From contig OX597834.1 of the NCBI GenBank assembly GCA_951406725.2, forward strand, positions 4,836,001-4,900,000: a stretch of DNA of 64,000 bases. Direction: 5' to 3'. How positions within the stretch are numbered: position 1 is the stretch's first letter; the number at the start of each line of letters is the position of its first letter. A program made the position numbers and the translations under genes. The notes beneath the pieces were generated by a model. That model searched no databases. It was not told the DNA's origin and saw only the letters and a list, made by a program, of their open reading frames with translations. This DNA comes from Octopus vulgaris. Its lineage: Eukaryota. Shown here piece after piece: positions 16,046 through 20,206 of this stretch.

Positions 16046-17019
16046 TATACTATAAAAGCTAATAAACAGAACCATCACTTATAACGACGTTTCGTGGGGC
16101 TAAACAGTAACTATCGTCCCATCGAGGACTGCCACATTATGTTGACAAATAGTCTTTGCTATAAATGCTACATCTTGTGAAGGAGCGAGGATGAATTACC
16201 AATAGTTGGAACGGAGTAAATCGGACATTTAATGTCTTTCAACATGAGAAGTCTTTGACTATCTGATTATACAGACGTATTGATGCACTGTCATGCACCA
16301 CAGGTACAACTGTCGATAAATCAATGTAATTAACCCAAAGCCACTTAGCGGATTTCTCTGCAGCTGTGTCTACTGAAAATCAGGCTTCTTCTATGCCATC
16401 CATGTAAAATTCAATCTTTCGAGAACATTGTATATCAAGCGTCTTGCTAAAAATCATTTTTAAAGTAAAGCTGTTGAATTTGGTTGCTGAATATAGCATT
16501 TAATTAGTGGTTATTGGTCTATTCTACAGGTAAGCAGAGACTGTGTGTGAAAGGAGACTCGATGCTAACGCTGATTAAAATGTATATGTTAGCGACAGAG
16601 TCAGTTTTAATACTACCTCTGTTACTAACTTTTATTTTTAAACAAGCTAACTGGCCAACCGTGACACCAGTGCCTGTCCTGGCAGTGTCAGTCTACGTGT
16701 CGCTGGCGGGCAGATGAATCGCTGTCGCCTCTACCGGTCGATCGTCCATCATTGACAAAGCTAAACAGGTCAAAAATTACGTTATCTGGTGGTTCCGGCG
16801 CTGGAGGCAGCGGGAATTTATCTCTCCTATAGTGACATAAACAAAAGTGCCTGTTACATCAAAAACCCAATATAAAAATTTCTCTCAAGGTAACTACTGC
16901 GGCATAATTTTCTCTAACAGAACATCCACGTCTAAGCAGCGTTAAATCTTATCTTACCTCTCACTAACACTGACTTGCAGCAGAGATTATCCACTGTTTT
17001 ATTAGGTTCAACATATTCA

Positions 17020-17238
17020 ATTCTTTATTGCCCACAAGGGGCTAAACATAGAGGGGACAAACAAGGACAGACAAAGGGACTAAATCGATTACATCGACCC
17101 CACTACGTAACTGGTACTTATTTAATCGACCCCGAAAGGATGAAAGGCAAAGTCGACCTCAGAAATCAGAACATAGCGGCAGACGAAATACTGCTAAGCA
17201 TTGCGCCCGACGTGCTAACGTTTCTGCCAGCTCGCCGC
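17020..17238 (-). mobile_element. SINE family B with 17-bp TSD
   Basis: TAGGTTCAACATATTCA at 17003-17019 and 17239-17255. Confidence 0.92.
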
Positions 17239-17569
17239 TAGGTTCAACATATTCATGTTACAAATCCGCTTCCTGCTTCTATAATTGCATTTCAGCCTGG
17301 TTTATTTTAAGGGCCTGTTTTGTCCTGCAGAATGTTTCGCAAATATATCTTATAACCAAGTTCTTTGAGGCGTTCGACAGCCAAAAGTAATCCTTGAGAT
17401 ATTAGCAGCACCAGTCAGGATTTTCTAGAGGAATAACATACAATAAGGTTTGTCATTATCGAAATGTTGATGATTTCAAAGATGATGCAATTTATTTTCC
17501 ATGTCCTTTGCCCTCACAATTGCTGCATAATATCCATAGTGCAGGTATATGCATAACATTACGTAAGTT

Positions 17570-17771
17570 TACGGAGATGTACTTGCATAGCGAGTGACTT
17601 GATCTGAGATCGTGTGCTGGAACGAAAACAATTGCAGCGTGGACGGTGTTTATAAGCCATTTAAGAAACACACAAAAACCGTTAGATTCACTTCAACATT
17701 TAAATTTAATTTGTCAAAATATTTTCGTCGCTTTGAGACCGCGACTTGTTCACTGACAAAACTTCGTGCTG
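17570..17771 (-). mobile_element. About 200-bp retroposed element carrying a hammerhead motif
   Basis: TSD ATTA(C/G)GTAAGTT at 17558-17569 and 17772-17783. Confidence 0.7.
17710..17760 (-). ncRNA. Minimal type I hammerhead ribozyme candidate, G3:C8 core variant
   Basis: TTTGTCA-GTGAACA-A-GTCGC/GGTCTCAAA/GCGAC-GAA-AATATT-T-TGACAAA: 7-bp stem I, 5-bp stem II, palindromic stem III. Confidence 0.65.
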
Positions 17772-20206
17772 ATTAGGTAAGTTGGCTTTCATGTAACTCC
17801 AGCCAAGACACTATCACTAAAGTTTTCGTAAATCCCACCACAATGTGAGGTGGGTCTGAGATTTAACATTTTTTAAATTCCCAATATCTAAAATAGCGTA
17901 GATGTAATATCAAATTGCAGTTATTTCAATTTACAGTTTTTCCTACATTTAAAATATCCCGTGAACAATACGTGGAAAGATGTCCCCAGTTTCTCCCCTA
18001 CAGGAAGCCTGATCCGACAGTATTTGAAATCATACTGCCAGGGAAAAATATTATACTATATTAACAGGGTGAGGAGACCGCCTAAAATTATTAGCGGGAA
18101 GTAGTATTTTTTGTTTCAGCAACAACAGTAGTAGTAGCAGTTGATATGGTGGCTGGTGTCGTAAAATATATGAAATTCAAAGGCTTGCTTTGCGTTTGAG
18201 CCCTGTTATAAACATGATAATCAGAATGTTTACTATTTCAAAACCTAAGTCAGTTAATTACCTCAATTCAAAACAAAATTCTTTCATTTAATATATTCCT
18301 TCAGTTTCTAAGACTTCAATCTACTTTCGCTTTCGACCGTCTGGTTTCTAAAACTAATATATGTGGGTGCCATTTTGTTTCTAGCACAAAGTTGGAAATT
18401 TAGAAACAGAAACTTTTGAATATTTCTAAGTTATGTATTCTGGATAAATAATTTTAAACCAATTTAAATAGTCTTCTTTGTAGTGTAACAGGAACATTAT
18501 AAATTTTAAAAGCAAAATCAGTAAACGAAACACAGCAATTGGTATGTATCTTGTAACAAAGGACTATAGAGCGAATAGTTTTCACCAATACTAATCAGGT
18601 AGTAACTGAATTGGCAGTGTTGATACTATTGATATTATTCAATAAAATTTACGTATCGGTACACAACATTATTAAGAAACACTAAATAACTATTTCTTTT
18701 GAATAATAAAAATATAGCCTTCTGTGTTATTGTTAATAACCAGTTTAGTATATTTCGATTATTTTATAAATCATATCAAATAATACTGCAAATAGAAGAT
18801 CATTGAACCAAAGACTAAACACTATATTTTGACCCCTATCTCTGATCTAAGATCTCAGACAAGATAAAACATTTGTTTGAATTTGATTCTAATTTCTATG
18901 AAATGAACTTAAGTTGATCCCATTTTCTGCTCATCCCTCTAAACTTTGTAGCATTCTACGAAAGAATTTATTGTAGAGCACTCAACAGTGGTGAGATGGG
19001 CAAAAGTGTTGACTGTTAGAATACAATCACCGCACATCTCGTTTTTGGTTCCTCATTGACAAGTCTGATAAATCAGCAAACAATCATACGCTACATTGTA
19101 TATCCCATCAAATTTATGCTCTTTCAAAAGCTATATCACGTGGTGCCACTTTAGTGAATCTGTAGAAATGCAATTCACATTTATAAATATATAGATGTCT
19201 GTGCATGAGTGCGTGTATGTGTATAGGGCAAGTTATATCATGTAGAAAGTCGACGTACCAGAATGTTCTTCTCTCATAGTTCTTGTATCTTACTTTCTCT
19301 TCTAACTCTAGCAGTAACTATTTACAGGTAAACCTCAGAAAATGAATAAAAGACGGAGACTAAAGCTAAGTAGCAAATTTAGTGGCTGCTTAATGACTGA
19401 ATTCTTTACTCGTTTTATATTATTCACCATTTTTTTTATTTCTTTACTTCAACACTTGGCTCTGTTTCATTTTGTTTTTAAGCAATTCTACATTTTTAGT
19501 AATCTAATGGCGAGAAAAATATTAGATTAGCTGAGTTCTTGCTGGCAGCGATAAGATGTCGAATAGTAACATCAAGGATCGGTGAACAATCGAACAAATT
19601 CAATATAATCTTAATGCAAACGCACATACAAAAAGACGGGGAAACACTGATAATGTAAATGTGACTGAAGAGTAAGAATAATGGCTAAATGATTGTAGAG
19701 ATCTAACACTACACGCTTAAAGAGAAGAAACTTTGAAATAGTTAAATAGTAAAATAGCCTTCTGAAATAAAAATCAAATAAAATAGACACAAATTTGGAA
19801 TAAAGTTGAATACTTTACTTAAATGTAACTGCGAAAAAAAAAAAAATAATAAATAAATAAAGAAAATAAAGAATTCCGTTTCGTTCTATTTTCTGAGCAG
19901 TTTTTAATCAAATTTGGTGTTTGCAGTAAGTCTCAAATTTTGTGTAACCAGGTTCGAACGCCAGATTGCCTGTAGAGGAAATACAATTTTTATTTTCCAA
20001 TTTCTGGTATCTTGTTTCTTTGGTGTCAACACTTTCAACTATCGTGCATTGCTATAAATATTATTCTAATACTGTGTGTTAACTAATGTTGTGTAATGAA
20101 AAACCAATTTTGTAGAGCGACTTCCAGTAATTCGTTGCTATATATTCAGAGGACATGTAAGAGGCTGTGTCTCAATAAACCATGTAAGCGGGGAATACAT
20201 TTATAC

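Follow-up and report, generated by a model that had tools for sequence, protein, structure and literature searches.

A Putative Solo Pseudo-LTR End of a Penelope-Like Retroelement in Octopus vulgaris Carries a Hammerhead-Type Motif With a Family-Wide G3-C8 Pair

In Octopus vulgaris, a 202-nt piece on the minus strand of a 64,000-nt stretch of contig OX597834.1 (the whole stretch is referred to as the window; the piece spans its positions 17570..17771) is identified from its sequence relatives as the solo pseudo-LTR (pLTR) end of an endonuclease-bearing (EN+) autonomous Penelope-like retroelement (PLE). It contains a minimal type I hammerhead motif in which core positions 3 and 8 form a G3-C8 pair throughout the family. 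Taken as a whole, it is probable that the piece is such a pLTR end with such a motif and that it derives, as seems likely, from an internal RT start on an uncut transcript. Family membership, the link to an RT/GIY-YIG ORF, the exchanged pair, the C3-G8 motif of a sister family and the anatomy of the insertions are direct observations.

The piece is flanked by two copies of a 12-nt repeat on the minus strand, the 5' copy at 17772..17783 and the 3' copy at 17558..17569, which are identical at 11 of 12 positions; a random pair of 12-mers at equal spacing in the window matches as well in 0.13% of cases. Read as a target-site duplication, this repeat supports the origin by retrotransposition that had been claimed in the preliminary description of the locus. 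The independent 200-bp element assumed there has to be replaced by the pLTR end of an autonomous PLE. The window copy starts without AGATG, the ~5 nt with which the family 5' end usually begins, represents the long form with an optional tail (17570..17625), and is ~90-91% identical to the pLTRs of the ORF-bearing copies L243-L250. Its last 90 bases (17571..17660, minus strand) are the first 30 codons of the RT/GIY-YIG ORF of the element, with the ATG at 17660, and the same sequence continues into the ORF in copies L244 and L247. The alternative, short 3' end of the family falls at 17626..17631. Neither further family copies nor ORF remnants were found within the 64-kb window. A different dispersed repeat, which we take to resemble an octopus SINE, has a copy at window positions 17011-17245; it matches the window at 12 more places and was hit in 46 of the 280 loci fetched.

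Close copies of the 202-nt stretch are found across the 2.8-Gb genome (2,656 candidates, of which 40 were scored). In L247, the arrangement is pLTR-ORF-pLTR, and in both L244 and L247 the 3' end of the element runs in frame into the ORF, which leads to the assignment of the piece as a solo pLTR end of an EN+ PLE. Pseudo-LTRs that result from a partial tandem including the ORF start, as seen in these two copies, and an optional 3' tail combined with inverted 5' copies are both Penelope features. The protein carries a GIY-YIG domain (PF01541) at its C-terminus (residues 420-511 of L203:5979-7568; E 9e-5) and a YVDD motif visible by eye; Pfam RVT_1 gave no hit in the 530-aa piece scanned, and the family protein shows a weak match (E 1e-9) to an RVT_1-positive 781-aa PLE. 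The CX3CxxC linker between RT and EN (CQSNCAVC) conforms to the CX2-5CxxC linker described for Neptune and Nematis (Craig et al., 2021; PMC8557442) and, judged by this motif, places the element with the Neptune or Nematis clade. A complete open frame from the ATG is absent in all long copies whose frames were listed. The same subfamily alleles as in the short copies are present on ORF-bearing copies; the short solo copies far outnumber the latter, and a promoter-side or intron flank was seen in 3 of 63 copies. In contigs of four runs, guessed to be of RNA origin, coverage is deep over the pLTR end and thin over the ORF, and no GT-AG joint is seen, but start, strand and source are not readable from contigs.

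The 781-aa PLE family was considered as the parent and rejected, as it shows no sequence match, has different ends and carries a U3-A8 motif of its own. A PLE tandem was likewise rejected for the 3.4-kb tandem at L167 (G000:C2:171236000-171245999), a segmental repeat that contains no RT and with which a decayed promoter-side family copy has travelled. Upstream of the studied copy, at L208:5600-8420, lies another broken PLE-type ORF, which belongs to a different, Pro/Ser-rich family.

The hammerhead-type motif extends from 17760 to 17710 on the minus strand. The 5' strand of stem I (17754..17760) pairs with its 3' strand (17710..17716) at 7/7 positions, 17760-17754 facing 17716-17710. Core positions 3-9 follow as GUGAACA (17747..17753, with G3 at 17753 and C8 at 17748), and an extra, unpaired nucleotide is situated between A9 and G10.1 (17746; A in the window copy, G in most copies). 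Stem II and a 9-nt loop II occupy 17727..17745, 17745-17741 pairing with 17731-17727 in 5/5 bp; loop II varies between subfamilies and stem II is constant. The segment 17717..17726 comprises GAA (17726-17724), the palindromic AAUAUU (17723-17718), which substitutes for stem III in the window motif, and U17 (17717), and hammerhead numbering would place the cut between 17717 and 17716. The three-way layout with U4-G5-A6, A9, G12-A13-A14-A15.1 and U16.1-H17 is that of the minimal type I PLE hammerheads, and the extra base at 9/10.1, G10.1-C11.1 and the palindromic stem III are all present. The C3-G8 consensus of this class is lacking, and a Watson-Crick 3-8 pair is retained. A motif with a reciprocal 3-8 swap had been correctly recognized on the minus strand in the preliminary description, including stems, core, GAA and palindrome; the layout given there holds apart from the unpaired base at 17746, which had been omitted. 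The predicted cleavage triplet UUU had been called a poor one; it is not unusual for the class, as U17 is found in 24 of 56 Penelope-type motifs (PMC4209133, Fig. S3; our count).

The exchanged pair is shared by the family. A 20-mer with G3-C8 has 6,323 exact matches in the genome, and its reversed control has none; the canonical C3-G8 core in the same flanks has zero matches in the genome, also once the stem I condition is dropped. Among copies picked solely by their upstream sequence, 29 of 30 carry G3-C8 and one carries G3.G8. By these counts, G3-C8 is the family state and not decay of the window copy. A slightly looser pattern yielded 433 places altered at position 8 only, 228 altered at position 3 only and 25 altered at both, none of them to C3-G8. 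As these counts fit independent decay after insertion, they are uninformative on selection. The unbiased picture is that of the 30 copies picked by upstream sequence. Eight of the 25 double-change places read A3-U8, which was rejected as a subfamily since it fits two common transitions, and 3 of the 12 double-change hits that were fetched (L101, L106, L108) are not members of the family. The diverged copies L102, L107, L110 and L111 carry U3.G8; a U3-G8 motif is also listed once in Fig. S3 of PMC4209133.

Copies with a broken pair bear on the history of the swap. Among the matches listed, G8 accounts for 36 of the first 100 position-8 changes (433 in all) and C3 for 11 of the first 100 position-3 changes (228 in all), and in one older subfamily G3.G8 reaches ~4% (31 G8 versus 717). 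The G3.G8 copies are more diverged and lean to an older subfamily, yet 38 of 42 have a C8 copy as nearest neighbor. An old ORF-bearing copy, L258, is G3.G8 as well; in an ORF tree restricted to copies from the octopus genome and to rows of at least 200 aligned residues, it groups with L210 and L264 (both G3-C8) at a support of only 0.76. In 4 of 13 G8-bearing inverted pairs, G8 is present in both arms of one insertion, and some source RNAs with a broken 3-8 pair therefore seem to have moved. Since G3.G8 copies exist, some of them in both arms, a one-step intermediate is possible; the swap is indeed no decay of the window copy, but the two simultaneous changes assumed in the preliminary description are not needed.

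Two further PLE families of the same genome help to interpret the motif. The G3-C8 family has a sister, with 55% protein identity over 815 aa and intact frames of 1,312 aa, that carries a hammerhead with C3-G8 at the homologous pLTR place; all of its copies listed exhibit A9C. Relative to this sister, both partners are changed in 5 of 15 pairs, which are spread over stems I, II and III and position 3-8; a single sister sequence among four alignment rows accounts for every one of these two-sided changes. The sister family (L251-L256, L260; e.g., G000:C17:6328700-6338600) is young, features a long Asn-rich insert, and has many intact frames (1,310-1,312 aa) as well as two 3' ends at 26 and 82-85 nt into the ORF. 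A third family with intact 781-aa RT/GIY-YIG frames carries a U3-A8 hammerhead. It is also young (L113-L120; e.g., G000:C16:20835500-20840500), has two 3' ends, the palindrome ACAUGU, no extra base and a weak stem I, and shows repeated motifs behind the ORF, presumably CCAAT- and CRE-like. Each of the three families thus keeps a Watson-Crick 3-8 pair (G-C, C-G and U-A). Within the G3-C8 family, subfamily alleles in 30 copies occupy 0 of 42 core and stem columns versus 12 of 69 loop, leader and UTR columns (Fisher p 0.002), where loop II accounts for six of these 12, in part through one indel, and the 15% cut-off is the analyst's choice. By this sequence comparison, the hammerhead motif looks preserved by selection.

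Most copies start at AGATGCAGC, and AG precedes ATGCAGC in 46 of 71 copies. Of 30 promoter-side copies, 22 have a TATAWAW motif that starts at -30 from the A of TCAG. An extra G before AGATG is carried by 22 of 35 short copies, the next base being random. Cap copying occurs in other retroelements. The fixed 5' end is therefore likely a TATA/Inr start with a copied cap, and a TATA/Inr pair in pLTRs has been described (PMC3846280). Alternatively, it could represent a 3' splice site, with the short copies arising from spliced or lariat-derived RNA. The upstream 22-mer, which has 526 exact matches in the genome, can indeed be read as a branch point (ACTAAC), pyrimidine tract and CAG, and introns are known in PLE pLTRs (PMC2377424; PMC8557442). 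However, the AG is retained in the short copies without any upstream exon common to them, and the predominant G before it, the random next base and the TATA-like box at -30 fit a copied cap and a promoter. The splice-site reading is consequently improbable and ranks below the promoter reading, according to which the short copies are likely cDNAs bounded by the TATA/Inr start on one side and an internal RT start on the other, with the ribozyme uncut between them.

The anatomy of the insertions was analyzed in 40 consecutive loci from the listing of 20-mer matches, comprising 63 copies. Their 3' ends fall into two groups, 33 at approximately position 202 and 29 at 139-148, with one elsewhere, and 40 of the 63 copies end on (TA)n. 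Such a pair of ends agrees with the mapping of PAc, the Poseidon element of Anolis carolinensis, in which RT starts at two internal sites (PMC11167929). An inverted, head-to-head partner is present in 23 of 40 loci. All 32 inverted pairs combine one long and one short end, one long arm being given by selection in three of them (first search). Nineteen of the 32 composite insertions are located in simple or near-simple targets, and 11 of the 13 others are flanked by a 10-15-nt duplication. In four of the 32 pairs (L042, L055, L057, L136), the arms carry alleles of different subfamilies, which suggests, for these sequences, two RNA templates in one insertion. The combination of tail and inverted copies agrees with PLE descriptions (PMC8557442; PMC3846280). 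The distance from the predicted cut to the element ends is ~60 nt on the upstream side and 85-145 nt on the downstream side. Among the 38 hits starting beyond position 30 (279 hits in total, not deduplicated), three start at 54-56, at the cut site; most loci had been selected through patterns located 5' of the cut, a choice that would overlook solitary copies derived from cut RNA. RNA 5' ends at about 17716, as anticipated in the preliminary description, are not what most genomic copies record, thousands of which span the cut site.

Cleavage by the G3-C8 motif is doubtful on the basis of structure prediction and comparison. In the predicted monomer, stem I is extended by a G3.U17 wobble (pairing probability 0.67) and no stem III is formed. 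An analogous C3-G17 trap has been reported, and the G3-C8 variant studied there was more active with G17 than with C17 (PMC3884650). This predicted pairing, the A9C of the sister and the G3.G8 copies that appear to have moved all make cleavage questionable, and from A9C and the arms sharing G8, cores with a broken consensus seem to be able to move. In PAc, the C3G/G8C double mutant is partly active, the protein is needed for cleavage, core mutants insert normally and insertion proceeds from unprocessed RNA (PMC11167929); partial activity of a G3-C8 laboratory double mutant is also reported in PMC8495972 and PMC3884650.

These observations are best accommodated by a model in which transcription would start at the A of TCAG, 30 nt behind the TATA-like box. 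The element protein would nick AT-rich DNA and prime RT within the ORF start, near either codon 11 or codon 31. When this happens in the 5' pLTR, a complete cDNA of ~150 or ~208 nt would result; its insertion would create a 10-15-nt duplication and would often leave two arms head to head, one per site. In source elements, the hammerhead fold would be kept by selection; it probably cleaves slowly, as a dimer or together with the element protein, and cutting would be unnecessary for this type of insertion.

Other readings share parts of this model. The hammerhead of the same element could be a non-cutting relic, either kept as a structure for protein binding, RNA dimerization or as promoter-proximal sequence, or inherited from few source copies, with a neutral swap. 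This is quite possible, if tentative: the G3.U17 pairing is predicted to trap the core, the sister carries A9C, G3.G8 occurs in an older subfamily and in L258, the single and double changes fit independent decay, and core mutants of PAc insert normally. However, all three PLE families of the genome maintain a Watson-Crick 3-8 pair, subfamily alleles are absent from core and stems, and the laboratory double mutant retains partial activity. A related proposal, which we regard as doubtful, assumes that the fold is maintained chiefly for the pairing of two RNAs via the palindrome and not for cutting, so that a dimer of protein and RNA, with one RNA at each internal start site, would prime both nicked strands and join the cDNAs head to head. 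Such a dimer would explain the long and the short arm in every inverted pair, arms from different subfamilies, and the drift of the core (G3-C8, U3-A8, A9C) under a held geometry.

The remaining alternatives concern the identity of the piece and of the motif. It is highly improbable that the piece is a retrozyme or SINE, as an independent non-autonomous element replicating via hammerhead-cut or circular RNA. Such an element could account for the excess of short solo copies over ORF-bearing ones and the scarcity of intron or promoter-side flanks, and retrozymes have been argued to derive from pLTRs (bioRxiv 10.64898/2026.07.22.740005). However, no head-to-tail monomer array was found among the 70 loci whose hits were listed, the element ends are remote from the predicted cut on both sides, and the subfamily alleles are common to ORF-bearing copies; L244 and L247 largely refute this reading. 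A mere chance resemblance to a hammerhead has a negligible likelihood. The fold energy of the motif is no better than that of shuffles (z -1.4 to -1.7) and Rfam at the gathering threshold gives no match in the window, and the evidence against chance consequently comes from the family and its sister element instead of folding energy: the homologous pLTR position, the canonical C3-G8 of the sister and compensatory changes in all three stems. The sister alignment refutes a coincidence, provided that both pLTRs are homologous.

The C3-G8 pair is among the most fixed features of hammerheads and is demanded by structure-based searches. Consequently, such searches overlook a family with G3-C8 even though it has more than 6,000 copies, and so does Rfam in this case. 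The three PLE families (G3-C8; C3-G8 with A9C; U3-A8) form a natural series within one genome for the question, left by the work on PAc (PMC11167929), of whether Penelope hammerheads need to cut at all; solo copies record two internal RT starts, and the arms from two templates render a two-RNA insertion model testable; the core series and the two-template arms increase the usefulness of the variant.

The presence of hammerheads in pLTRs is already known, as are tails, inverted arms and solo pLTRs. A natural G3-C8 pair was found in no literature searched, a scope that excludes Lunse et al. (2017), the Terminons study (Arkhipova et al., 2017) and some supplementary files, any of which may list the variant. 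The portions available of PMC6765202, PMC6155905, PMC2377424, PMC2837043 and PMC6257768 contain no natural case. In the literature accessed, G3-C8 occurs as a laboratory mutant only (PMC11167929; PMC8495972; PMC3884650), and natural U3-A8 has been reported (PMC3088659; PMC4209133). The minimal type I hammerheads of PLEs (Cervera and de la Pena, 2014; PMC4209133) resemble the octopus motif in their location in the pLTR, the extra base at 9/10.1, G10.1-C11.1, the palindromic substitute for stem III and the frequent U17. They differ in that none of the 56 motifs of Fig. S3 has G3-C8 (53 C3-G8, 2 U3-A8, 1 U3-G8; our count) and in that stem I is shorter than the 7 bp of the octopus family; the search descriptors of that study required C3-G8 or U3-A8.

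As in the metazoan non-LTR retrozymes (bioRxiv 10.64898/2026.07.22.740005; PMC7229834), the copies are short, hammerhead-bearing, PLE-related repeats; unlike retrozymes, the octopus family shows no tandem monomer arrays in the 70 loci listed, its ends are not set by the cut, and it is still part of an ORF-bearing element. The EN+ PLEs Neptune and Nematis share the RT, the linker, the C-terminal GIY-YIG domain, partial tandems, inverted 5' copies and microsatellite targets (Craig et al., 2021; PMC8557442). In Adineta vaga, Penelope elements have a similar ~200-bp pLTR with a TATA box and an Inr-like motif that includes the first ORF codons, a tail on one of two inverted pLTRs, 8-10-bp target-site duplications and solo pLTRs (Arkhipova et al., 2013; PMC3846280). 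Only few copies exist there compared with thousands of solo pLTR ends in octopus, and self-priming on one template is favored for the inverted arms, whereas 4 of 32 octopus pairs combine arms of different subfamilies. Similarities in insertion are seen with PAc (Frangieh et al., 2024; PMC11167929), in which two internal RT starts in the ORF start give rise to an optional tail, targets are AT-rich, the RNA template is unprocessed and the C3G/G8C ribozyme is partly active. The PAc tail measures 30-40 nt versus ~57 nt in the octopus family, which has a Zn-finger-like linker; moreover, the PAc ORF starts within the ribozyme and its swap is known as a laboratory mutant, whereas the octopus family carries the swap naturally and has its ATG 93 nt behind G3.
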